From Dictyostelium discoideum (lineage: Eukaryota): 64,000 nucleotides of DNA. A program made the translations under genes and the position numbers. The stretch lies in contig CM000151.3 of the NCBI GenBank assembly GCA_000004695.1, forward strand, positions 4,224,001 to 4,288,000, read 5' to 3'. How positions within the stretch are numbered: position 1 is the stretch's first letter; every line of letters starts with the position of its first letter. A model generated the notes under the pieces. It made no database searches. It was not told the DNA's origin and saw nothing but the letters and a program-made list of their open reading frames with translations. Of this stretch, positions 1-51,158 are shown in pieces.

Positions 1-495
1 TTTCATCACCGAATGTTAGAAACTTTTCAGTTCCTACAACAACTACAACCACTTCTATTGGTTCAAATAGTTTTGTTTCACCAAGATTTATTGGAAAGAG
101 AACAACTCCAAGTATTTTTTCACCAAGAAAGCAATCCATTTGTAAACCTAAAAATACCACCTCATCATTGAGTAGTTCTTCATCTAATATTTCAAAATCT
201 ACAAATTCAACTCCAACTCCAACTCCTGCACCAATACTTACTTCAACACTTTCTGTAAATTCTACTTCAAGTAGTAGTAAATTACAAGAGAAAGCATTAC
301 CAACTAAAACTACATTCATTACACAAACTTCATCACCTTTATTATTACCACAGCCATTAACTTCAACATCAACATCAACATCAACATCAACATCAACATC
401 AACATCAACATCAACATCAACATCAACTACAATACCAACACCAACACCAACAACATCCTCATTTAAATCAAATTCATTCTCAACCTCAAATGATA

Positions 496-579
<84 letters not shown>

Positions 580-896
580 TTACTTCTCCAACTATAGTAT
601 CTTCACCATCTTCACCAACATCACCAATATCACCAACATCATCAACATTTATAAAAGGTCATTCTCATTCAAATTCATTATCTCAAACTCCATCCTCATC
701 ATCTTCTTCACTTGGAAATAGATTAACAGCACCAGGAAGACAATTAAATCATACAAATTCTACATCATCTTTAATATCAAAATTTAATCAAATTGATACA
801 CCTTCAGGAATTAATCAAGGTTGGAAAGGTGGTGTTGTAGTTCAAAAGAAACAAGATCCAGTTAAAAAATCTTTGGCTATTTTTGAAAAAGAATAA
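1..896 (+). CDS. 3' end of a gene for a Ser/Thr/Asn-rich low-complexity protein. It is partial because the frame is open from the window edge, and the stop is TAA at 894-896.
   Basis: Frame 3 is open from position 3 to the TAA at 894-896. The ORF-track 'start' at 168 is a TTG, not an ATG. It contains (TCAACA)n coding (ST)n and an (AAT)27 poly-N tract, and codon usage is AT-rich throughout. Confidence 0.5.
489..579 (+). repeat. (AAT)n trinucleotide repeat encoding poly-Asn
   Basis: About 30 direct repeats of aat lie in-frame inside the 1..896 CDS. Confidence 0.9.
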
Positions 897-972
897 TACT
901 ACCTCAACAAATAAATAATTACCATCATAATTGAAAAATAATTATGTTTGGATTGTATAATTAAATTAATTT

Positions 973-1003
<31 letters not shown>

Positions 1004-1428
1004 TAAAAAGATCTTAGTATAGATATTTTTTTTTTTTTTTTTATTGAATAATCAAATCAAATAATATTATTTTATCTTTGTGAACAAAGAATTAATTTTT
1101 TTATTTTATTTTTATTTTTTTTATTTTTCCTTATTTTTTGAGAGTTTCTGTAAATGTAATAAAAATGTTATGTATAAATTAAAAAGTTATTAAATTTATA
1201 TTTGAAACTAAAAAAAAAAAAAAAAAAAATTAACCACAATAATAATAAAATTATATAACCCCAAAACAAATACAAATTTCTTTCTTCTTTAAGAATTTTT
1301 TTATTTTTTTTAAAATCAATTATTTTGATTATATAAAAAAAAATAAAATTATTTAAACAATTTTTTTTTTTTTTTTTATTATTATTTCTAAAAAAACATT
1401 TTTAAAATATTAAAAAAAAAAAAAAAAA

Positions 1429-2889
1429 ATGAAATTAATAATTTTAGTAATAATATTTTTAAAATTAATATCAATTAATGGATTTGAAAATATTGATGGT
1501 AATAATTTTTTAATTGAAACAGTTGAAACAATTTCATTTAATGGTAATTTTAATTTTTCAAATAAATTTGATAAAATCAATGGTGATAGTAGTATTTGTT
1601 TTTCAGGAGTTGGAGGTGGTTTTAATGTTTTGGAATTTTCGTCGGGTTTAGGAAATTCTGAAATTTTCATTGTAAAAAGTGAAGAAGACTATTACTTTGA
1701 AGAATATGATCACTATGAAACTTGTAAACATCAAATTGGAATTACAGATTTACATGTTAAACCAAATCAAAAATTAAGAAATAAAACTTTTTATTTCTTT
1801 GTACAAGAAGAATATTATTATTCAGGTTGTTTTAATATTTATTTAAAAAATTGTGATATTAAAACAGATCAAAAAAATGATTCAATTTCTTATGAAATTC
1901 AAATTTTAAAAATTCATTCACCTTTAAATATTAGTCATTCAACAATTCCATCATTTCATATTTTCTTCACAATTTTCTTTATTTTAGTTTTTGGTATTTC
2001 AATTTTCCATATTTATATTTTAAAACAAAATAAAATTAATGGTGATATAATTACATTGTTTTCATTTATTTTAATAATATCAATTGTTGGTCATTCAATT
2101 TATCTTTCAAATTGGAATTTTCAACTTAAAAATATGGTGAAATTAATGGTAGAATTTTATTAGGTAATAGTAAGTTTTTAATTAAATTAAAAAATTATTT
2201 AAAATTATTTAAAATTGTTTTTAAAATTAATTTTAAATAATTTTTTTTTTACTTTTTATTTTTTTTTAGTTTTTACTTTTACATCAAATTCATTATTTTC
2301 ATTATTAATTATAAATATTAGTCAAGGTTGGGGATTAATATCAGATTTTGGTAAACGTTTTGCAATTATTTTTAATTGTGCAATATTTTTTTCAACTGAA
2401 ATATTAGGTTTAAGTGCTTATTTAGTTGAATCAAATAGTCAATTTTATGGTGGTGAATATAGAAATCCATTTAAATCAAATGTTGGTTATGTTTTAATAG
2501 CAATTCAAGGTTTAACAATTTTTTATTTTATTTTTTCAAACAAAATCTTTTCAAATTTGATTTCAACAGATCAATATCAACAATCATTTTTGGTTAAATT
2601 TAAAATAATTTTTTCAATTTGGATAATTTCAATTCCAATTTCAGAAATAATTAGTATTTTCATTGTTGACAATAATTTTAGATTCAGTTTATTTAGTATT
2701 ATTAATGATTCATTTAATTTAATTTTCTATTTATTAATAATTTATATTTATCATCCATGTAAAAGTAATATTTTAGTAAAAAGATTAAATAGTTATTATG
2801 ATGATGGTGATGAATTATCAATTAATCAAAATCAATCACAACAAAAAAGTATTGACGAAATTAATCTTGAAAATTTATATAACAAGTAA
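1429..2889 (+). CDS. Seven-transmembrane protein with a signal peptide and an N-terminal luminal domain of about 170 aa. The topology resembles GPR107/Lung-7TM. It appears to be two exons, roughly 1429..2163 and 2270..2889, but the junction is unresolved.
   Basis: ATG at 1429 is followed by a hydrophobic signal (MKLIILVIIFLKLISING). Two TM helices end ORF 1. ORF 2 (2215..2889) has five more TM helices and a C-terminal tail but no Met at all. Both ORFs are in the same frame. A GTAATAGTAAGT donor cluster sits at 2164-2175 and a polyT...TAG acceptor at 2267-2269. The in-frame TAG at 2161-2163 lies immediately 5' of the donor, so no canonical GT-AG pair preserves frame. Confidence 0.5.
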
Positions 2890-3110
2890 AAAATCAATAA
2901 TAATAATAATTTCAATTCAATATGATTTTATTTTTATAAAATTTAATTTTTTTTTTTAATTATTATTCAATAAAAAAAAAAAAAATTATCTTTATTTTTA
3001 AGAGATTGTTTTATTTGTTGGTTTTTTTTTTTTTTTTTTTATTTGGTTTTTTTTTTATTTCTTTTTTTTTTTTTTTATTTTTTTTTTTTATTAAATTGAT
3101 TTTGTTTTTA

Positions 3111-6916
<3,806 letters not shown>

Positions 6917-7350
6917 TAATTATTTTATTTGTGTATATGTGTTTGTGTGTGTGTGTGTATGTGTTTTTGTATACACGTTGAATTGCGATGAAAAGTGTAT
7001 TTTATTTATTTTTTTTATTTTTAGGTAATGTGTTTTAGAAATGTGAGTGTTGTTTTTCTGTTTTTGTTGTCGTTTTTTACTTTCTTTTATATTTATATTC
7101 CCTATTGTATCTGTATTGTTTTTTTTTGTTTTTTTTTTTTGTTTTTTTTGTTGAAAAAAAATAAAAAAATAAATCCAAAACTACTAAAACTTCTTTGAAA
7201 AAAATAAAAAAAAAAAAAAAATGAATATTAATGGAAATAAAAAAAACAATAATAAAAAAAAAATATTTAAAAATAAATGTTAGTTTAAAATCCTTATTAT
7301 TTTTATTATTATTATTTTTATTATTATTATTATTATTTTTATTATTATTA

Positions 7351-7449
<99 letters not shown>

Positions 7450-7821
7450 AGGGTGTTTGAATGAATGAGGGTATGAATACCACTATTTATATTTATATGT
7501 TATTAGTGTTGGAGGTTATTGTTTTTTGTTATTATTATAATAGTGTTTTTACAACTTAGGCGTTATATGTAAATTTCATACATTTGTATATAAATAATAA
7601 CAAAAACAAAAAAATAAAAAAAAAAATGAAAATTTTTCAATCAATGTCGAAAAAAAAAAAAAAAAATTTAAAAAAAAAAAAATTAAAAAAAAAAAATAAA
7701 AAAAAATAAAAATAAATGAAAATAGTAAGTTAATGAGAGAAGAAAAAAAAAAATAGTATGTTAATGAAAGAAGAAAAAAAAAATTTGAATAAAATAAAAA
7801 ATAAAATAAAAGTCAAAGGTG

Positions 7822-7858
<37 letters not shown>

Positions 7859-8210
7859 TAAATTTTTTTTTTTTTTTTTTTTTTTTTGATAAATTTATAC
7901 ACAAAAAAATTGATATTTATAGCTATTGAACAATAATGCAAATTAAGATTTTATATATTAAACAACTTGTATTTGAGGCTTGTCTATGTATTTGAGTTGT
8001 TGTGTTGTTGTTGGTTTTTTTTTTTGTTGTTTTTGAAAAAGGATAAAAAGTGAAAGTTGAAATTATATAAAATAAATTTGATATATAATTTTTTTTTTTA
8101 TAAAAAAAAAAAAAAAAGAAAAGAGAAAAAAGATAAATGTTTAATTTGTTTTTATCTTTTTTTTTTTTTGATTTTCTTCTTTTTTTTTTTTTGTTCACAT
8201 TCTTTTTCTT

Positions 8211-8806
8211 TTAAAAACCATGTATCTTGATAGATGGTTTTTGGGAGATCTTCTCTTCAATTAAAAAGAGAGCGATTTCTTTTCTTTTATCTCCTTGGAG
8301 TTTTATAATCATACCAAGGTTTTCTTCTTCTACTATGTTTCCATTACAATTTAATGATTTCTTAAGATGTTTCAAAATTTTTTTCAAGTCAATCTTAGGT
8401 GGTAATCCTTCTACGGTTGTTACTGCTTTACGGCCGCTTCTTTGGAAAATACGAATATGGACGTAACTGATACCTGAGTCTCCACCTAAATTAGAGTCTT
8501 CAGCAAATGGGTCTATTTTTTTTTTAAAAAAAAAAAAAAAACAAGATTATAAAAAAAAAAAAAAAAAATTAGTAAATATAAAGGAAAATATAAAAATAAA
8601 AAGTAACTATTCTAATTATTATATATATGTATATTTGTTTTAATATTCTCTTATTGGTTTTTTTTTTTTTTTTTCTTTCATATTTTTAAACTTTATTTTC
8701 TAAATATAATGCGGAGAAAAAAAAATAAAATAATAATAATAAATAATTAGATATAGGATTTATTTATTTACTTACCAGCTGAGTTAAGATTTTGAATTGA
8801 GCTCAT
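8211..8806 (-). CDS. eif1: Translation initiation factor eIF1 (SUI1), 110 aa, join(8776..8806, 8211..8512) on the minus strand
   Basis: Exon 1 is ATG AGC TCA ATT CAA AAT CTT AAC TCA GCT G, then a GTAAGT donor at 8775. The AATAG acceptor is at 8513. The spliced protein is MSSIQNLNSADPFAEDSNLGGDSGISYVHIRIFQRSGRKAVTTVEGLPPKIDLKKILKHLKKSLNCNGNIVEEEENLGMIIKLQGDKRKEIALFLIEEKISQKPSIKIHGF, which collinearly matches the eIF1 family (NLHSFDPFAD..., IHIRIQQRNGRKTLTTVQGI..., QLQGDQR). Splice phase 1/1 is consistent. Confidence 0.9.
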
Positions 8807-9487
8807 ACGAGTAAAATGTGATATAGTAATACTATGGATCTAATAAAAAGTTTAGAGTTGCTCTTTATAACTTTTTTTTTTTGTGCTGAATAATAAAAAA
8901 AATGAAAAAAAAATTTTTTTTTAAAAATAAAAAAAAGAAAAAGAAAAATAAAAAAAAATTTTAAAAAAAAAAATAAAAAAAAAATAAAATAAAAAAAAAA
9001 AAAAAAAAAAAAAATAAAAAAACATAAATTCAAATTTGGAACGGTTGGGGAACTTATAAACTAAAATAGTTTTTTTTTTTTTTTTTTTCTTATATTTTTC
9101 ATGATTTAATATATAAAATATATTTTTTTAATATTATTATTATTTTTAATTATTTTTAATTATTTTAAATTTTTATTTTATTTTATTTATTTGTTTTTTC
9201 CCAAAAATAAATAAATTAAAAAAAATACAAATAAAAAATAAAAACATAAAAAAAAATAAGAAAATAAATAAATGATTATCTTTTTTTTTTTGAGTTAATT
9301 AAAAAAAAAAAAAAATAATGATAATCAGATAATTCTATATTTTTAATTTTTTTATTTTAATTTTTTTTATTTATTTTTAGAATTCTAAAAATAAATAAAA
9401 AAAAAAAAAAAAAAAAAAATTAGATTTATTTTTTTTTTTTATTTTTTTATTTATTTATTTTTTTATTTTTTTATTTATTTTTTAAAT

Positions 9488-10891
9488 TTATTTTTCAATT
9501 CTAAATTTAATTGAATGATCAGATTGTTGAGATGGAATTAATTTAAATGGATGTGATAATTCTTCAGGACCTAATTTTTTACCTTCTTTATAATCAGAGA
9601 CTTCTATACAAGATGAGGTGATTTTACCAGTAAAGGTAGAGATGGCATCATCATAATTTGAGCCCCATGTGATTGTACCTGTGATATTTTCGCCATCACG
9701 TTTCACTACATCCAATTTAAAGTTTTCAATTGAGGTACTTGTACCCTTCCATTGAGAATCTGGTTGTATATTTGTAACGGGTGGGGATTTTGTTAATTTA
9801 AGTTTAAAAGTTGAATCACCAACTTTTCCTATGATTTGGTCACCATAGATGGTGGATTTATAGTCGTTTGGAACCTCTACATCATCTTCACCACTTATGA
9901 TTTCATATTCTTGGAAATTGAATTCACCATTGGTTGCCACTACTTTACCCTTATATTTTGTTTTTGCATAACCTAAATTAATCCAAGTGATTACACCCGA
10001 AACTTCTTCACCATCACCTACAAAATCATCAACTGTCATAACCAATGGATAATGATCATCATCACTTGAACAAACACCTGCCCATTCACTACCTTTAATT
10101 AAAAATCCTGAATTTATTACTAAATTATTTGTTGTACTTGTTGAATTATTTTTTGATTTTGATTTTGGTGATGTTGCTGTAGCTGTACCTGTATTTGTAG
10201 TAGTAGTAGTAGCTGTAGTAGCTGTAGTAGTATTTGTTGGTATTGCAACAACTGGTGCAGTTTCTATTAAAAATAATAATAATAATAATTAGTAATTTAA
10301 TCTTTAAATTTTATATATATATATTTTTTTTTTATTACATACTTTGACCAACTAAGAAAGCAGTATGATCAACTAATTTTTTAGATTTAATACAAGAATC
10401 AATCCAAGTTGATTCAACACAAATAATTTTTAAACCTTCTGCTTTTGAAATGATATCATTAAATGTTTTATAATCATCTTTTAGATCAGATGGTTTCAAG
10501 ATGAGATAATCAGTTTTCTTTGTCATTGTATCAACTGATTTACCACCACAAATCTTAATTATACCTTTAATTTCATTTGTTTTAGTCTTTTGACTTGTAT
10601 TACTATAAAATGCAAATTGAAGATCATCAAAAAATGATGTTGTTGTATTTGCTTTAGTTCTTTTAACTGCACGACGCTAAATAAATAAAAAAAAAAAAAA
10701 AAAAAAAAACAATCAATATTAAAAAACTAATAATAATAATAATAATAATAAAAATACAAATAATAAAAATACCTTCATAGCATCATCAAATCTTCTTTGA
10801 ATACCAACTAAATCTGGATCATTGATTGAATTTGTAAAATTTGAAAGAATCTATTATTTGAATTTATAATTATTATTATTAGTATGGGAAA

Positions 10892-10954
<63 letters not shown>

Positions 10955-11149
10955 AGTAAATTAAATACATACATCAGCAATTGGCATAATTTCAATATAT
11001 CTTTCATTGTCAACTTTAATTTTTTTATTTCCAATTGTTGCCAATGATGAATTGAATGACTTTTCAAATCCATCTAATAATGATGAATCATAAGGTTTCC
11101 AAGCATCACCATCTAAATAATACCAAATATAAGCATTTGCATGACTCAT
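9488..11149 (-). CDS. WWE-domain plus BRCT-domain protein of about 455 aa with a C-terminal tandem-repeat domain of unknown function. Model is join(10973..11149, 10773..10850, 10343..10676, 9488..10263) on the minus strand.
   Basis: Exon 1 (ATG 11147-11149) encodes a WWE-like motif, AYIWYYLDGDAWKPYDSSLLDGFEKSF...YIEI, with a GTATGT donor at 10972. Exon 2 (ILSNFTNSINDPDLVGIQRRFDDAMK) has a GTATTT donor at 10772. Exon 3 encodes a BRCT-like fold (KIICVESTWIDSCIKSKKLVDHTAFLV) with a GTATGT donor at 10342. Exon 4 follows a TTAATAG acceptor at 10264 and carries a T-rich linker and two repeats (G.ITW...Y..GK). Phases at every junction are consistent. Confidence 0.75.
10880..10960. repeat. (AAAT)n microsatellite inside intron 1 of the WWE/BRCT gene
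   Basis: About 20 tandem aaat units. Confidence 0.9.
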
Positions 11150-11320
11150 TTTCTAATTTTTTTTTATTCTTTATTTTTTATTTAATATACAAATGACTAT
11201 TGTTAAAATTAATAAGAAAAAAAAAAAAACAATTAAAAAAAAAAAAAAAAAAAAGTTTGAAATTAAAAAAAAAAAAAAAAAAAAATTGTTTTGATATTTT
11301 CAAAAAAAAATATTTTTTCT

Positions 11321-11364
<44 letters not shown>

Positions 11365-11383
11365 ATCATATTCCCAAATCACC

Positions 11384-11427
<44 letters not shown>

Positions 11428-11468
11428 AACAACTTTTAGATTGATTTTATTATTTTTTTTATAAAGAT

Positions 11469-11857
11469 TTATTTTCTTGATAATTTTTTAGAGATTTTAC
11501 TTAATTTTGCTTTTGCAAGCATTCCCAAGAAACGAGCTCTTTCACGATAATGCACGATTGACATAATAATAATAGCAATGATAGCACAAGCAATCACTAT
11601 ACCAACTATTGCACCAACAGATAATGAATTAACTTTATTATCATTTGGAAAACAATCATTAACATCAATTAACACTGAAAATGATGTACTTGATACTCTT
11701 GCATCGACACATGGTGGTGATGATGATAACTCCTTTTCATTACCTTTTGAATCATATGTTGCAAATTTAATATTACCAAAACTATTACTACTTTTACTAT
11801 CAAAATTAACTAATTTCAATATTGTTTTTTCATTTGTTGATGATGATGATGATTCTG

Positions 11858-11906
<49 letters not shown>

Positions 11907-13927
11907 TAATAAATTTTCATTTATTTTAATTATTACAATACCATTAATATCAGCTAATTTTGAAATATTTATTGTTGAAAAGGAATAAAGTGAATCAATA
12001 ACAATTATAATTTTTGATGATGAGTCATTTGATTGTATGAAATTACCAATTATATTGAAATTGTTAACAGAGAAACTTGACCCGAATTCACCACTATTTT
12101 GAATGATTGTACTATTAATATTACCATTACCTTTAATTGATCCACCATTTAATTGAATTGAATTATCACTTGATAATGTACCACCATTTAAATTTAATTC
12201 ACTACCATTTTCATTCCTAAATTCGTAAATATAAATAGTATGATTATTAATATTTAATTGAGTTAAACTATCATTACCACCACCACTACCACTACCACTA
12301 CCACTACCATTGCCATTACCATCACCATTATTAATAAATGAAATATTAATCTCAACATTATCATTATCAATATTGAATATACCATCATTTTTTAGTGTAA
12401 TATTATTACTTTTAATATTTGTATCATTTGTGTAATAAATACCACCAGATGATAAATTATATATACCATTTTGATTAATTTCAAAAGTTGAATTATTATT
12501 TAAATATAGATTACCTGATGTTTTAACAATACCATTGTCTAAAATAAATTTTGAATTTTCAAGATTAATGTAAGAATTTGGGTGAATTATTAAATTACCT
12601 TTATTAATTATGAATATAGAATCATTTAAATTAATGTATGATGAATTTTGTAGAATTGAATTACCACCTTCAATATAAACAGTCGTAAAATTAGTTTCAA
12701 ATTCTCCATTAATTATTAAATCATCATAAGAGTATATAATGGAATTTTGAATTCTCAATGACGATTTATTATTAACAGTTAATGAACCATGTGATTTAAA
12801 TACTGAATCAATAATTACTACAACTATATCACTATTAAATATTGTAGATTTATGTGAATTAAAATCACAAGAATTAAATTTAATTTCACCATTAAATTCT
12901 GCACTACCCCATGAATTGAAAATACTCTTTTCTATTGTAAATTCTGAATTTACTGATGAATAAAAGTCATTTCCTATATTAATAATAGATTCCATACCGG
13001 TTATACCAAATTTAGAATTACCATTAATTTTTAAATCACCATAAATTGACAATTCTGATTTATCATTTACAAAAAGTTTAGAAATACCATTTAATAATAA
13101 ATCACCATTAATTGTCATTTCATTATTATCAAATAATAAAAATAGAGAATCATCATTTAAATGTAAACTTCCAGAAATAAATAAATCTAAATTATTCATA
13201 GTATTAAAAATAGATTGATTCATTAACATTGCATCACCATTTATTTCAATATTTGAATTATTTAAATAAATTTGACTTTTATCTTTCATTATTAGCCCCC
13301 CATTTAAATTAATTTTTGAATTATTTTCAACATTAATAGAACCATTATTATTAATTTCCAATTTATTACAATTTAAAAATAAATTTGATTTTTGGTCTTT
13401 TTTTAAAAAAAAAATTAATTAGTTAATTATATTTATATATTTATTTTTTATATATCAATAAAATTTAACATACAAATATTTAAAAAACCTCCAATAATAA
13501 AATTTTTGGTTGAAATTGTTGTGTTTTTAAAAGTTGGGTTAAATATACTATTACTATTAATTTCAAAGTAATATTTTACATATATTGAATTATTAACATT
13601 TAATATTGCACCATTTTCCATAATGAAACTTCCTCTATTTATATCCATTGAATCATATACACTATATTGACCATACAAATAAAATGACCCATTATTAATT
13701 GTAAAATATTCTGAAGAACATATTTCATCATAATCTATTAATAAATTACCACCATTTGATAATAATAATGAGTCATCTTTAGTTGGAACTTTTTCAGGAT
13801 ACCAATTAGTTTTATTTAAAAATGATTGTTTATTATTTCTATCACCAACATATACAAGTCTATCACAATTTGATAATTTAATTATTAATATAATTAAAAA
13901 AATAATAAATAAAAATATTTTTTTCAT
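11469..13927 (-). CDS. Type I membrane protein of about 793 aa with right-handed beta-helix-like N/G/I-rich repeats, a signal peptide and a C-terminal TM helix. Model is join(13474..13927, 11469..13396) on the minus strand.
   Basis: ATG 13925-13927 with signal MKKIFLFIIFLIILIIKLSNC. A GTATGT donor at 13473 in phase 1 pairs with an AAAAAAG acceptor at 13397, giving a 77-nt intron. Exon 2 encodes repeats of the type 'SIYGDLKINGNSKF' and 'NGEIKFNSCDFNS', a (GS)n linker, and then a TM helix (VGAIVGIVIACAIIAIIIMSIV) followed by a basic tail. Confidence 0.7.
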
Positions 13928-43927: not shown

Positions 43928-43973
<46 letters not shown>

Positions 43974-44032
43974 ATTATTTAAAAAATAAAATAAGATAAT
44001 CCAATTAATAATAAAAAAATGATTTCACATTT

Positions 44033-45330
44033 TTAAAAAAGTTTTTGAACAATTAGTAAAAATACCAATAAACATACTGGAGCTGATAAAGTTGATGATA
44101 TTGATAGGTCATTATTTGGAGATTCAGTTGGAGATGAGAGTGGTGATGCACTTGGTGATGCACTTGGTGAGGAACTTGGTGATTCACTTGGCGAAGAACT
44201 TGGTGAGGAACTTGGTGAGGAACTTGGAGAAGGTGAAACATATTGAATATATGAGACTTTTGAAGTGGTAGTGGATCCACCAATATTTAATGTTAAGATA
44301 TAATCATTACCAATTTTATTTGGTGGATATGTAATTGTGAATTTTGAATCTGCGATTGAAGAAACTGAACATAAAATATCATTTATACTAACTGATACTA
44401 ATGAAACATTATTTGTGATGAATGAGCCTTCAATATCAATTGAACCAACAATTGAATATAAAATTAAAGTCTTTTGATTAATTTTAATATATGAGAAATA
44501 ATAAAATTTCATTTCATTTGAATTTTGGTTACCAACAATAACATCAAAATCAAAATTCGAACCAGTAAGAGAGAAAAAGTAATTACCATTATCATTCAAA
44601 AAGGAATAAGATACTTTCCAATTTGGAATGATTTTGTAATTTGTGCATTTTTACCAACACCTTGAGGAGTAAAGAATGAAAATTCTGAATTAGGAATAGA
44701 CATATCTAAATCATTAACTGACCAACCTAGGTTTCTACCTGTTAAAATAAGGACTCTTCCCTCAGTTGGGAACAATTTTGTATAATTTTCAACACTTGAT
44801 TCAAACCAAACTAAAAGATATTGTATAAATATATACATTTTTTAAACTTGCTGGTAAAACAGTCGTATTTGGAACATTATTACTAAGTTGTTGTAAATTC
44901 CTATAATAATTTAGATTTTTTATTAAAAAATTAATATTAACATATAAAAAATAACCAAATTGTTGTTGTTGTTGTTGTTATTGTTATTTATGTAATTTAT
45001 AAAAAAATATTTACAAATTTTGTAATTTTTCAAATTTATACATTGATTAATAAAATGGTAAATTAAAACCAATATTTTTGCCTAAATTTATATTTGTTAA
45101 ATTTGGTAATTTGTATGAATTTGGTTCGGAATATAAATTTAATGAGGTAATAACTTGATAATTTGTTTTACGATCCACAATACATATAACGTAAGAAGAG
45201 TCACATGGATTGGAATCCTTACTAATACCATAATGAATATAACAAATCTGAAGCTAAAGATTTTTGAGTTGGTTCAACTTCACATAAATAAAAAAAATGG
45301 AAAAAATAATACTAAATATTTTCATTTTAT
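44033..45330 (-). pseudogene. Degenerate paralog (copy A) of the downstream GPI-anchored surface-protein gene. It has multiple frameshifts and an internal deletion of about 1.26 kb relative to copy B.
   Basis: The signal-peptide exon MKIFSIIL... at 45330 is frameshifted relative to copy B at 48446. Its ORFs 44596..44838 and 44033..44599 sit in different frames but align to copy B (VENYTKLF..GRNLGWSV..MSIPNSEFSF..QGVGKNAQITKSFQ and FITNN.S..SVSINDILCSV..KFTITYPPNKIG.DYILTLNIGGSTTT..S/P-rich..GPI tail). DNA at 44700-44920 aligns to B 46540-46625 joined directly to B 47885-48010. Confidence 0.6.
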
Positions 45331-45652
45331 TATTATTATAAGTATTATTTTTTATTTAAAAATAAAATAAAAAATAATTTTTTTTTTTAAAGAATTTTTC
45401 TTTTTTTTTTTTTTTATTTTTTTTAATTTATTTATTTATTTAATTTTTAAATTATTTAATTATTTATTTGTTTTTTGTATGTTTATTTGTTGCTTGTTTG
45501 TTTGTTTGTTTTTTTTTTTAAAAATTATTATTTTTGTTTGTGAAGGATAAAAATTTAATAATTTCATTTATATTTTAAATTTAATAAATAATTATTTAAA
45601 AAATAAAATTTAGATAATCCAATAAAAAAAAAAAAAAGATTTAATATTTTAT

Positions 45653-47166
45653 TTAAAAAGTTTGAAAAATAAGTAAAAATACCAATAAACATACTGGAAC
45701 TGATAAAGTTGATGATATTGATAGGTGATTATTTGGAGATTCAGTTGCAGATTCAGTGGGAGATGAGCTTGGTGATTCACTTGGTGGTTCACTTGGTGAT
45801 GCACTTGGTGATGCACTTGGTGAAGAGCTTGGTGAAGAGCTTGATGAAGAACTTGGAGAAGGTGTAACATATTGAATATATGAGACTTGGGTAGTGGTAG
45901 TGGATCCACCAATATTTAATGTTAAGATATAATCTTCACCAATTTTATTTGGTGGATATGTAATTGTGAATTTTGAATCAGGGAATGTTGAACTGAACAT
46001 AAAATATCATTTATACTAACTGAAATAAATGAAAAATTATTTGTGATGAATGAGCCTTCAATATCAATTGAACCACCAATTGAATTTAAAATTAAAGTCT
46101 TTTGATTAATTTTAATATATGAGAAATAATAAAATTTCATTTCATTTGAATTTTGGTTACCAACAATAACTGAAACAGTAAATTCACCATTAGTTGCTAT
46201 TGTTGGAAAGTCAATCATAGGATATTTAATAATATGATTATTATCACCACTAATCTCTGCCTTTCCAAATTTATAAGGTGAACCATTGATAATCACAGTA
46301 TTGTTTGAATTAACATCGAAATCAAAATTTGAACCAATGAGAGAGAAAAAGCTATTTCCCTTATCATTCAAAAAGGAATACGATTTAATTGTTGGTGGAA
46401 GATAGCCATATTGGAATTGGTATGTTTTACCATTTTGGAATGATTTAGTAATTTGTGCATTTTTACCAACACCTTGAGGAATGTAGAATGAAAATTCTGA
46501 ATTTGGAATAGACATGTCCAAACCATCTACTGACCAACCTAGGTTTTTGCCTGTAAAAATAAGGACTCCACTACCATCAGTTGTGAATAATTTTGTATAA
46601 TCTTCATTAACTTCAAAATCTGAACAATTTGGCTTACTTGAGGAATCGAAATTTGAGAATGGATTTGGATGCAAATTTTGAGCATTACCATAACCAATGC
46701 AAAGAACACATTATGGTACTGTTCCATCTAATTTATTATTACTCAAGTGCAATTTTAATTTACAATATGACTCTGGAATATCACCAATAACCTAATAATA
46801 ATAATAATAATTAAAATTAAAAGAATTTAATTTTATAAAAAAAAAAAGTGAACCAACAAAATTTACTTACTAATGAACTATCTATGGAAAGATAGGTTAG
46901 ATAAGGAGCATCGTCAATATTTGGTAATGTTTGCTCGAAACGATTATTAGTAATTTGTAATGATGATAAATTTCCTAAACTAATCTTTTCAAATGGATGT
47001 GAAGAATTAGCTGTAAGATATTCTGTTTTAAAGGGAAAAAAAAACATGGTCCATTACATTGTTCAAACGATAAACCATAATCATAACGCATGGTACTTGT
47101 ATAAAATAAATGTGATATAAAAATAAATATAAATAAATAATTTTGTTGTAAATTTTGTACAACAAC

Positions 47167-47263
<97 letters not shown>

Positions 47264-48446
47264 CTACAATAATAATAGCAACTTACAATTTTAAAGGGTT
47301 AAAAACATTAATATGATAAATCTGTAAAGCCAATAGATGGATCATGGATAAAACCTTGTCCTTCAATTGTTAATATTTCAAGCATTGGTGTGTTTAATAA
47401 TATTTGTTTTAAAACATTTCAATTTCCAATACAGGTATTTTCCAAAAAATAATGACTGTTTATCTTACGTTGATTGTGTTTAATAATATTTTACTAAATG
47501 AAATACCTTGTGGTTTAGTGGTAGGAATAAAAGTAAGATAAAAAGCTATTATTTTTTGGAAAATACCTGTATTGGAAATTGAAATGTTTTGGTAACCGAC
47601 TTCCATGCCATTATATATATCCAAGCTCAAGTATTCTAAATTTGGGCACATTTCACTAATGTTTAATGGAATATTTGAATTATCTAATTTAAAACAAATA
47701 TTATTAAACACACCAATGCTTGAAATATTAACAATTGAAGGACAAGGTTTTATCCATGATCCATCTATTGGCTTTACAGATTTATCTAATTGGAAGTCCA
47801 AGTTCTCTCAAAAAAAATTCTTTTTAGTAAATTGTTGTGGTAGACTAAAACCAACAGATGGAAAAATCACTTTAAAAATTACAATACTTGATTCAAACCA
47901 AACTTTACCTAGTGGTACAGATATTGCACTGATAAACACATATTTCAAACTTGTTGGTAAAACCATATTATATGGAACGCTATTATTAAGTTGTAGTAAA
48001 AACCTGTAATAATTTGGATTTTATATTAAAATTAATTTAAAGAATAAAAAAATTGTTGTTATTTTTGTAATTTATAATATAATATTTACAAATTTTCTAA
48101 TTTTTCAAATTTATACATCGATTCATAAAATGGTATGGTAAAACCAATATTTTTGGCTATACTTAAATCTGTTAAAAAATGGTAATTTGTATAAATCTTG
48201 ATGTATTTCATAATATGAATTTGGTGGAATAATAAAATCCAATTCTGTAACAACTTCATAATTTTTTGAAGGTTCATAAACCCATTCAATGTAATAAGTG
48301 TTGCATGGATTAGAATCCTTGCTAATACCATATAATGAATATAACACATCTGAAACTATAGATTTTTGAATTGGATCAACTTCACATTGAACTAAATTTA
48401 AAATATAAATTAAAAAAATAGATAAAATGATACTAAATATTTTCAT
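45653..48446 (-). CDS. GPI-anchored cell-surface glycoprotein gene (copy B). It has a signal peptide, LRR-like segments, an Ig/IPT-like region and a Ser/Pro-rich stalk. It is multi-exon, with at least one apparent frameshift, so it may itself be a pseudogene.
   Basis: ATG at 48444-48446 with signal MKIFSIILSIFLIYILNLVQC. LRR-like ORFs lie at 47460..47801 and 46817..47047. A GTAAGT donor near 47285 is followed by an intronic (CAA)n tract at 47161-47270. ORF 45922..46674 is Ig/IPT-like, and 45653..46000 contains TITYPPNKIG, the S/P stalk (SPSASPSASPSEPPSESPSSSP) and the hydrophobic GPI tail LSVPVCLLVFLLIFQTF. At about 45985 there is a 1-nt deficit relative to copy A (tcagggaatgttgaactgaac versus tctgcgattgaagaaactgaac), which shifts the frame between the last two ORFs. 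Confidence 0.45.
47311..47790. repeat. Inverted repeat inside the copy-B gene. Arm 1 (47311..47456) is the reverse complement of arm 2 (47561..47790) except for a ~100-nt segment present only in arm 2. The spacer is about 100 nt.
   Basis: Direct comparison shows that the reverse complement of 47311-47456 equals 47561-47603 joined to 47703-47790. For example, caaaacatttcaatttccaatacaggtattttccaaaaaata pairs with tattttttggaaaatacctgtattggaaattgaaatgtttt, and aatctgtaaagccaatagatggatcatggataaaaccttgtcc pairs with ggacaaggttttatccatgatccatctattggctttacagatt. Confidence 0.85.
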
Positions 48447-48481
48447 TTTATTATTATTATTATTTTTATTATTATTATTAA

Positions 48482-48548
<67 letters not shown>

Positions 48549-48704
48549 TATAATTTAAAATAAATTTTTTTTTTTTTTATATAAATAAAAGTAAAAAAAA
48601 AAGGAAAAGAAAAAAAAAAAAAAGGAAAAGAAAAACAAAAAAAATCATTTCACAATTAAATCAAAAAAAAAAACACCTCAAAGAACAATTTTTCTTTTTT
48701 TTCC

Positions 48705-49672: not shown

Positions 49673-51158
49673 ATGAAAAAAACAAAAGATATTGGAATTT
49701 GTGCAATTGACATTTATTTCCCACAAACCTATGTAAATCAAAGTGAATTAAAGAAATATGATAAAGTGTCAAATGGTAAATATACAATTGGATTAGGACA
49801 AACCAATATGTCATTCGTTGGAGATAGAGAAGATATAGTATCGATGGCAATGACATCAGTTAAAATGATGATGTCAAAATATAGCATTGACTATCAATCA
49901 ATTGGTAGACTAGAAGTTGGTACAGAAACAATCATTGATAAATCGAAATCAGTGAAATCATCAATAATGTCATTATTTCAAGAATATGGTAACACATCAT
50001 TAGAAGGCGTCGATACATTGAATGCATGTTATGGTGGTACCAATGCATTATTTAACAGTTTACAATGGATTGAATCAAGTTATTGGGATGGTAGATATGC
50101 GTTAGTGGTAACTGGCGATATCGCAGTCTATAGCAAAGGTGCAGCTCGTCCCACTGGTGGTGCTGGTGTCGTCACAATGCTAATTGGTCCAAATGCAACA
50201 TTAATATTCGACCAATCATTACGTGGCACTCATATGGAGAATGTGAACGATTTCTATAAACCTGACCTATCAAGTGAATACCCCTATGTTGATGGTAAAT
50301 TATCAATTGAATGTTATTTAAGAGCATTAGACAAATGTTATTTAGAATATAAAAAAAAATTTGAATCAATCAATGATGATAATAAATTTTCAATGGATTC
50401 TTTTGATTATGTTTGTTTTCATTCACCTTATAATAGATTAGTTCAAAAATCATACGCTAGATTAATATATAATGACTTTTTACAAAATCCAAATAACCCA
50501 AAATATCAAGACCTTTTACCTTTTAAAGATTTATCAACTGGTAAAGACAGTTATATAAATTCAAAACTCGATCAAATCACTCTAAAATTATCATTGGATG
50601 ATTTTAAAACTAAAGTTAATCCTTCAACTTTACTCTCAAAAGAATGTGGTAATAGTTATTGTGGTTCAGTTTATAGTGGTATTTTATCATTATTATCAAA
50701 TGTTAATGATTTAGTAAGTGTATACACTAAATAAATAATTATTTTTAATTTTTTTAATTTTTTTCAATTTTATTAATTTGTTAATTTTATAGAATAATAA
50801 AAAAGTATTAGTTTTCTCTTATGGATCAGGTTTAGCGGCATCTTTGTTTTCATTTAGAATTAATAATAATAAAAATAGAAATAATAATAATAATAATAAT
50901 AATTGCTTTTTTAAAACAACAAATGATATTGGAAAGATTTCAAATATAAAAGAACGTTTATCAAATAGGGTTAAAGTTTCACCTGAAGAGTTTACAAGAA
51001 TTTTAGATATTAGAGAAAAGAGTCATCAAATGGTTGGTGCTCGTACACCAATTGATACTCTTGATTATATTTCAGCTGGTACTTTTTATCTTGAAAAAAT
51101 TGATGAAAAGTTAATAAGACATTATAAGTCTAAGCCAATTATATCTTCAAAATTGTAA
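49673..51158 (+). CDS. Hydroxymethylglutaryl-CoA synthase (HMGCS), 468 aa, join(49673..50713, 50793..51158)
   Basis: The sequence IGICAIDIYFPQTYVNQSELKKYD...GRLEVGTETIIDKSKSVKS...NACYGGTNALFNSLQWIESSYWDGRYALVVTGDIAVY...ARPTGGAGVVTMLIGPNA is a near-identical collinear match to HMG-CoA synthases, including the catalytic Cys in NACYGG. A GTAAGT donor at 50714 pairs with a TTTTATAG acceptor at 50792 (79 nt, phase 0). The C-terminal exon encodes GSGLAASLFSF...VSPEEFTRILDIRE... with an Asn-rich insert. Confidence 0.9.

Follow-up and report, generated by a model that had tools for sequence, protein, structure and literature searches.

A young, lineage-specific palindrome in a Dictyostelium discoideum pseudogene, probably formed by a linked pair of inverted insertions templated on the gene itself

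In the four-point model for template-switch mutation, one event creates reverse-complement copies and perfect hairpins (PMC5453318; PMC8794818). Here we describe a hairpin-forming palindrome of about 480 base pairs (bp) at 47315-47786 of a 64,000-nucleotide (nt) stretch of the Dictyostelium discoideum AX4 genome (GCA_000004695.1, contig CM000151.3, positions 4,224,001 to 4,288,000 of the forward strand; hereafter the window), an inverted repeat beyond chance that lies inside copy B (DDB_G0274529) of a tandem pair of genes. The locus resembles four-point template-switch mutations (PMC5453318; PMC8794818), as well as the quasi-palindrome model of Ripley, in that a nearby fragment appears to have been re-copied as its reverse complement so that a perfect stem arises in one step, in the short range involved, in being polarised by a close outgroup and in the clustered differences at the repeat. 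It differs from them in that two nested and linked events seem to have contributed to a single 161-bp stem, in the length of the copied fragments (65 and 99 nt), in the direct duplications at both events and in the 100-nt original block that was left as a bulge.

Fork stalling and template switching (FoSTeS) and microhomology-mediated break-induced replication (MMBIR) are also comparable, with switches in series, microhomology at junctions, fillers of small size and synthesis that may be error-prone close to the points of switching, for which a cluster of five substituted sites beside 47475 might be a counterpart; unlike those events, which span kilobases to megabases, the present one covers about 100 nt and involves no change in copy number beyond the inserted fragments. 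Closest in its setting is ddi-mir-1184, a DrnB-dependent microRNA (miRNA) whose hairpin lies in an exon of the pseudogene DDB_G0283997 and whose 5p and 3p species are almost perfect reverse complements (PMC6161686 Table S1). Both are near-perfect hairpins within a D. discoideum pseudogene exon, and the mir-1184 hairpin may have arisen by a similar inverted self-copy, but ddi-mir-1184 has a precursor of about 105 nt with sequenced mature small RNAs, whereas the present structure extends over about 480 nt with a bulge. Hairpin-RNA genes and young miRNA genes of plants and animals likewise derive a long perfect stem from the inverted duplication of coding sequence; unlike the present case, in which the copies remain in the same dead gene, they copy a target gene to a separate locus and act in trans.

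We conclude that the palindrome is very probably a young and lineage-specific structure within a pseudogene, built by two linked, local and templated inverted insertions of the gene's own sequence. As such, it exemplifies a known mutational process with unusual clarity and is no new kind of genetic element, and the case by itself raises no new biological question. A close outgroup keeps the exact ancestral junctions, which gives a base-by-base view of a 161-bp stem built in two linked steps, and the published four-point model is slightly exceeded by the direct duplications, the filler and a copy that stops at the foot of a stem already present.

The database homologues of copy B are two D. discoideum models of the same locus (DDB_G0274529, 597 amino acids (aa); ACTFIT_003488, 708 aa) and P0003, an intact 742-aa 'cell surface glycoprotein' of D. 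firmibasis with 35% identity; no further D. discoideum paralogue emerged from the protein database search, and no paper was found by the gene name DDB_G0274529. A further search with the 113-aa minus-strand open reading frame was uninformative, as it gave no match even to the database proteins P0001 and P0002, which contain it. For comparison we used L001, the 4.9-Mb ACTFIT contig of an independent de novo D. discoideum assembly (GCA_054883475.1), and L003, the orthologous locus in an assembly labelled D. discoideum (GCA_054859385.1, JBTAPF010000017.1). A repeat search returned two pairs of arms, 47310-47413 with 47688-47791 (104 nt, 98%, 102/104) and 47411-47475 with 47526-47590 (65 nt, 92%, 60/65 in AX4). 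In an explicit alignment, the outer blocks (47315-47413 and 47688-47786) were complementary at 99/99 positions and the inner blocks (47414-47475 and 47526-47587) at 57/62 in AX4 and 61/62 in ACTFIT, which together form a stem of 161 bp (99 + 62) around a loop of 50 nt (47476-47525), while the 100-nt segment 47588-47687 belongs to the right arm only, has no counterpart in the left arm and forms a bulge. The initial annotation, made from the letters of the window, had described arm 1 as the reverse complement of arm 2 except for about 100 nt unique to arm 2, and the alignment agrees on both counts, with identities well above the floor of about 80% that it had set for the arms. The limits it gave (47311-47456 and 47561-47790) located the repeat correctly and fell a little short towards the centre, which the palindrome approaches to within 25 nt. 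The parts of the palindrome are as follows.

47315-47413, minus strand: left outer arm, block R; original coding segment LKQILLNTPMLEILTIEGQGFIHDPSIGFTDLSY, template of the right outer arm; matches P0003 252-286 at 57% and is present in L003.
47407-47475, no strand: left inner arm; 65 nt inserted as an inverted copy of 47526-47590, of which 3 nt (TTT) are overlap and 1 nt also belongs to the direct repeat, then AAAA filler.
47389-47406, minus strand: direct repeat copy 2, at the start of block R; CAAATATTATTAAACACA, 18 nt exact in L001 and 17 nt in AX4, at a spacing of 86 nt.
47475-47492, minus strand: direct repeat copy 1; AAAATATTATTAAACACA in AX4, the original start of block R left in the loop, reading 'KILLNT' against 'QILSNT' in P0003; a single copy in L003.
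47476-47525, minus strand: loop, 50 nt; original coding sequence (...FIPTTKPQGISFS plus repeat copy 1).
47526-47587, minus strand: right inner arm, block P2q; original coding sequence NISISNTGIFQKIIAFYLT, serving as template for the left inner arm; found in L003 too, and collinear with P0003 NITISSKGVYKKL.
47588-47687, minus strand: block P1; original coding sequence DNSNIPLNISEMCPNLEYLSLDIYNGMEVGYQ, the 100-nt bulge of the hairpin; collinear with P0003 SNSSIPTNIPQSLPNLQQLVLNIYNDMDQDDYQ and present in L003.
47688-47789, no strand: 102-nt in-frame insertion; right outer arm 47688-47786 (inverted block R, with the 7-mer TTTAAAA in it), to which part of the flanking repeat AATTAGATAA is added.
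47782-47791 and 47680-47689, no strand: the flanking direct repeat AATTAGATAA, 10-nt copies bordering the right insertion at a spacing of 102.

Folding of a 501-nt stretch over the palindrome gave a minimum free energy of -245.7 kcal/mol for RNA (z = -30) and of -165.9 kcal/mol for DNA (z = -28), in keeping with the proposal of the initial annotation that this intragenic repeat is capable of forming a hairpin. No second inverted repeat of complex sequence was present within the 64-kb window by dust-filtered self-BLAST, and the base composition of the window is 21% G+C and 79% A+T.

In a tblastn search of P0003 against the window, residues 1-260 were collinear with the minus strand from 48446 to 47475, with a 33-residue gap exactly over the right outer block DKSVKPIDGSWIKPCPSIVNISSIGVFNNICFKL (DKSVKPIDG...ICFKL), and residues 252-286 (LLDQILSNTPVLEYLNIDGLGYAINPLVGFLDLSY) aligned at 57% to the left outer block on the minus strand, in the correct downstream position. 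The inner block and P1 are therefore original on the right and the outer block on the left, and each arm holds an inverted copy besides. The right insertion comprises 102 nt, is in frame, lies between two copies of AATTAGATAA and is an inverted copy of the downstream block LKQILLNTPMLEIL...DLSY. The left insertion comprises 86 nt between two copies of CAAATATTATTAAACACA (18/18 identical in ACTFIT, 17/18 in AX4) and consists of a 64-nt inverted copy of the upstream block NISISNTGIFQKI, the 4-nt filler AAAA and one copy of the repeat, which constitutes an 18-nt duplication. Removal of the 102-nt insertion raises the score of the alignment to P0003 and removal of the 86-nt insertion restores the frame; with both deleted, a single frame aligns to P0003 over about 122 residues, interrupted by two gaps of one residue each, and scores 240 as compared with 136 before. 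The fold z was -0.4 for this reconstructed ancestor; a single insertion gave -9 or -22, and the two together gave -30. The hairpin was made de novo by the two insertions, and the inversion-duplication origin that the initial annotation had offered is thus borne out, in fact by two such insertions.

A transposon of the miniature inverted-repeat type, or another DNA transposon with terminal inverted repeats, was rejected as the source, since all blocks are the gene's own coding sequence and no other copies exist in the window. An inversion with staggered breaks was rejected as well: under it the repeat pairs should interleave and the middle segment should be inverted, whereas the observed pairs are nested and the segment between them runs collinear with the orthologues. 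The original coding sequence itself contains a weak quasi-palindrome, 47600-47640 (GAATACTTGAGCTTGGATAT, in P1) against 47555-47580 (ATTTCCAATACAGGTATTTTC, in P2), which is also found in L003 (2545-2860, fold z -3.1) and may have favoured strand misalignment at this site.

The identity of original and copied blocks also bears on the claim of the initial annotation that both strands read as leucine-rich-repeat (LRR)-like peptide. Both readings are indeed open (open reading frames 47460-47801 on the minus strand, 113 aa, and 47605-48009 on the plus strand, 134 aa), but they carry no biological meaning as a pair: one is the true coding reading and the other its antisense, which makes the observation trivial. 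The reading ...LKQILLNTPMLEILTIEGQGFIHDPSIGFTDLS... is the true coding sequence, with 57% identity to D. firmibasis residues 252-286, and arm 1, read on the minus strand, holds the original copy of it. The ...DKSVKPIDGSWIKPCPSIVNISSIGVFNNICFKL... reading is the antisense of the LKQILLNTPMLEILTIEGQGFIHDPSIGFTDLS reading, inserted in frame within the 33-residue gap of the orthologue. The plus-strand frame was characterised as follows.

47605-48009, plus strand: open reading frame of 134 aa, not a gene; the inverted copy of block R, open in the native frame of that block and running on into exon 2 antisense; no Pfam match.

It would be conceivable that two real LRR peptides are encoded on opposite strands, as both frames are open, or that the 99-nt repeats flank an invertible switch, as perfect inverted repeats could allow inversion of the 274-nt segment between them, but we hold either to be extremely unlikely. 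The plus-strand frame is unconserved in L003, where each frame contains 10-11 stops, antisense open stretches are common in the window, with 14 pairs of comparable kind, and the host is a dead gene, on which grounds dual coding was rejected; the segment between the repeats has the same orientation in both D. discoideum assemblies and is collinear with the orthologues. Pfam gave no match to any family for either arm reading and no LRR match for the concatenated gene; P0003 scored 20.4 bits (E 2e-4) against LRR_14, below the cutoff of 40, and the database homologue P0001 scored 16 bits against LRR_4, below the cutoff of 27, while the TIG domain of P0003 was above threshold (25.2 vs a cutoff of 20.9). 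A PDB sequence search returned no LRR match and a marginal IPT match only, and the LxxLxL-type periodicity was seen by eye only.

Comparison with relatives, which the initial annotation had recommended, polarises both insertions. The orthologue in L003, 87-92% identical to AX4 here (about 88%), is intact, with four collinear exons and no stops. It has an exact 86-nt gap at the left insertion, with the junction as predicted (...TCATTTAGT|CAAATATTATTAAACACACCAATGCT...), and a 100-nt gap at the right outer block. No palindrome is present in the L003 orthologue, which contains short AT-rich stems only (fold z -3.1), or in D. firmibasis; an apparent structure in L003 at z = -9.9 came from a crude test with 12 shuffles and was dismissed after the proper test gave the value of -3.1. 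Since both insertions are missing in L003, the palindrome arose in the lineage of AX4 and ACTFIT after its split from L003. The arms are identical at 99/99 and, for the inner blocks in ACTFIT, 61/62 positions, as compared with 72-90% between copies A and B and about 12% divergence of L003. Judged by these identities, the palindrome is young and lineage-specific, and far younger than the duplication that gave rise to copies A and B. A metagenome scan for the novel junction returned 0 matches, and no independent assembly of this site came up in Logan or elsewhere with contiguous open reading frames as queries, probably since a perfect inverted repeat of 99 nt disrupts short-read assembly.

Independent sequence also speaks to the concern of the initial annotation that an assembly error had inverted or collapsed this segment. 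Over 9.4 kb, 9 substitutions and the lengths of several homopolymers set L001 apart from the window, and every palindrome junction is identical. We regard an assembly or cloning artefact, whether from a chimeric clone, through repeat collapse or from a fold-back read, as very improbable: the Sanger-era AX4 chromosome 2 and the 4.9-Mb de novo contig differ by the substitutions and homopolymer lengths above and share all junctions, the junctions show orderly duplications and microhomologies, and a third genome (L003) is cleanly without both insertions, as would be expected of a real evolutionary event. The tip of the AX4 hairpin, which differs from ACTFIT at five clustered sites, could mean local base-calling trouble and is the observation that would favour an artefact.

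With regard to L003 itself, its positions 1-13503 show 87-92% identity to AX4 across 13 kb, including hgsB, a divergence far above normal within-species diversity, and from this distance (about 10%) GCA_054859385.1 probably represents a cryptic sister species, or else a strain that was mislabelled. Its layout also differs, with one intact surface-protein gene and a C-terminal fragment at 4167-4428 and not copy B plus copy A.

The initial annotation had placed the palindrome in an LRR gene. Copy B (48446 to 45653, with the palindrome) and the shorter copy A (45352 to 43970) are tandem paralogues on the minus strand, and the host was described as follows.

45653-48446, minus strand: copy B, DDB_G0274529, an LRR-like/TIG cell-surface glycoprotein gene; the pseudogene that hosts the palindrome, collinear with P0003 and the L003 orthologue.

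When called against copy A, L003 and P0003, copy B carries at least five disabling lesions: a 1-nt frameshift in a T-run (about 48170) through which the conserved repeat LTDLSIAKNIGFTIPFYESMYKFEKLENL loses its frame, the TGA codon 47808-47810, the 86-nt insertion, which shifts the frame and brings the TAA at 47460-47462 into it, a frameshift in a T9 run (about 47045) and a TAA in 'DGTVP*CVLC' (about 46713). The orthologues in L003 and D. firmibasis are intact, and ACTFIT shows no substitution or indel relative to AX4 at any of the lesion sites. On this count of lesions against intact orthologues, the host is a pseudogene and not a working LRR gene. The TGA was created by two compensating indels relative to L003 (-1 and -2 nt) in a stretch (47787-47815) of which about 25 nt are out of the ancestral frame, reading *ENLDFQL in AX4 and KELGLPITYY in L003. 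The DDB_G0274529 and ACTFIT_003488 models (43970-48446, minus strand) splice around the lesions of copy B and continue into the N-terminal exon of copy A, and both are due for annotation as pseudogene, as they presently fuse two copies.

Copy A lacks about 1.27 kb of the LRR-like region and another 141 nt, and both copies look non-functional in AX4. The initial annotation had suggested that the hairpin mediated the deletion in copy A, a proposal that we reject: the deletion corresponds to 47872 to 46607 of copy B, with breakpoints 82 nt and about 700 nt outside the arms, and the A/B duplication is much older than the palindrome (72-90% identity vs 99-100% for the arms).

As to how the two insertions were made, we suggest replication template switching, either according to the four-point 'template-switch mutation' model or through FoSTeS/MMBIR-type events. 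The ancestral order on the minus strand was N - P1 - P2 - Q - R - S, and the present order is N - [inverted R] - P1 - P2 - Q - (start of R) - [inverted P2] - R - S. In each event, the nascent strand would quit its template, copy 65 nt (or 99 nt) nearby from the complementary or the nascent strand and return slightly upstream of its departure, which would leave the direct duplications of 18 nt and 10 nt. As expected for template switching, the inserted fragments are reverse complements of nearby ancestral sequence (99/99; 60/65 in AX4, with a core of 61/62 in ACTFIT), and relatives keep the ancestral state (the 86- and 100-nt gaps of L003 and the 33-aa gap of D. firmibasis). The templates of the inverted copies lie 51 nt and about 370 nt away, and the junctions show microhomologies of 1-5 nt (A, TTT, GATAA, AA). 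In addition, the 7-mer TTTAAAA stands at the block boundary in both arms and is non-ancestral, as L003 and the loop copy have TTTAGT; this shared feature argues that the two events are linked, one insertion having been copied from the product of the other.

Two orders of events are possible on these features. With the left insertion first, the copying of block R as second event would have ended exactly at the base of the new 62-bp stem, 47413|47414, where the folded template would block the polymerase and hence account for the stop. If the right insertion came first, a second switch would have copied the right arm backwards and slipped over P1 via TTT/AAA microhomology, which would explain the 18-nt duplication as well. 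The latter order is formally equal, provided that the slip came during copying, to another scenario, in which one symmetric inverted duplication gave a full palindrome and P1 was later lost from arm 1 by a 100-nt deletion. The arms of the initial annotation can be read in this way, arm 1 being arm 2 with a 100-nt deletion, which is one of two possible descriptions, as P1 is original coding sequence that may never have entered arm 1. The left arm does equal the right arm minus 47588-47687, with TTT microhomology at the borders, but we consider a duplication followed by deletion unlikely, as a separate step would still be needed to put inverted R upstream of P1, an allele with inverted P1 is found in neither D. 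discoideum assembly (AX4, ACTFIT), and a single duplication cannot account for original blocks that alternate from one arm to the other.

Several points weigh against template switching as the origin of the two linked insertions. In all event types observed under the four-point model, the return point (4) does not lie before the departure point (1), whereas both insertions here are flanked by duplications (18 nt at a spacing of 86; 10 nt at a spacing of 102), which need point 4 before point 1, or a compound event; types with such a return were unobserved in human-chimp data (PMC5453318). The copied fragments (65 and 99 nt) exceed the examples in the accessible portions of PMC5453318 and PMC8794818, microhomologies of 1-5 nt are weak evidence in a genome of 79% A+T, and no template was found for the 4-nt AAAA filler (7 nt in the other order). 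The presumed lack of function, discussed below, is read from pseudogene status only. Lastly, end joining with snap-back synthesis would leave very similar scars, and sequence scars of replication template switching and of repair synthesis are expected to look alike. Templated inverted insertions with microhomologies, fillers and short duplications are also an expected footprint of end-joining repair, and those seen here would fit such an origin. Repair of two double-strand breaks in this manner, polymerase-theta-type end joining with templated snap-back (fold-back) synthesis, is thus a plausible alternative, if a clearly less probable one, given that the insertions are long for it (65 and 99 nt), that the two events are linked via the shared TTTAAAA junction and that neither site shows a deletion, the chromosome being perfectly collinear apart from the insertions.

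The two D. discoideum assemblies differ most densely at the tip of the hairpin.

47454-47492 (L001 3955-3993), no strand: cluster of 5 substitutions between AX4 and ACTFIT at 47454, 47458, 47469, 47472 and 47492, at the hairpin tip.

Five of the 9 substitutions in 9.4 kb fall within these 39 nt (corrected P of about 1e-7), with G, G, G, G and T in AX4 and A, T, T, T and G in ACTFIT. The ACTFIT state equals the partner arm at four sites and, at 47492, the outgroup and the second repeat copy, for which reason the AX4 state looks derived in this comparison. No donor sequence for the five AX4 variants as one templated event was found in the window. The cluster might be a true mutation cluster at an extruding hairpin; it might represent original switch errors that were kept in AX4 and corrected in ACTFIT against the other arm, as in classical quasi-palindrome correction; or it might consist of base-calling errors in the Sanger-era AX4 sequence just past the hairpin loop. 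Either way, users of the AX4 reference at 47454-47492 face possibly five base errors or a genuine mutation cluster.

Given that the 86-nt insertion shifts the frame and that at least four other disabling lesions are present, the palindrome most likely has no function. Its consequences are likely structural, namely a site prone to cruciform or hairpin formation and potentially fragile, and a long hairpin in any residual transcript. The precedent of mir-1184, a near-perfect hairpin in a D. discoideum pseudogene exon, brings up the prospect of a proto-hairpin-RNA or miRNA locus, in which the pseudogene would still be transcribed and its stem of about 160 bp diced by DrnA or DrnB to act in cis or on related transcripts. 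The transcript-sense fold is extremely stable (-0.49 kcal/mol/nt, against a criterion of -0.2; PMC6161686 Table S1), and PMC8794818 puts template switching forward as an origin of de novo hairpins and miRNAs, a proposal also made in the accessible part of 10.1101/2023.04.19.537475. We nevertheless find this idea doubtful, as 0/12 miRNA loci of PMC6161686 Table S1 map to the window, Rfam gave no match on 46500-48600 at E <= 1, no sequence in the window is similar enough to serve as a target in trans, the protein search revealed no further D. discoideum paralogue, and the stem carries a 100-nt bulge. Here we also speculate that a hairpin-RNA gene may have been caught at birth in a newly dead gene that would still be transcribed, its stem being diced and the tip cluster reflecting ongoing quasi-palindrome correction or mutagenesis at an extruding hairpin, which we deem improbable.

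Two further observations were made nearby. A microsatellite, (AAC)32 at 47169-47264, reads (GTT)n on the gene strand and lies in the intron directly downstream of block R, where the aligned stretch is 99 nt longer than in the L003 orthologue. The gene for HMG-CoA synthase B (hgsB, DDB_G0274871) occupies 49673-51158 on the plus strand, with one 79-nt intron at 50714-50792 and a product identical to AX4 XP_644076.1, by which the window belongs to AX4 chromosome 2, and AX4 and ACTFIT differ in it by T4A and K27E, both inside the first 80 nt of the coding sequence.

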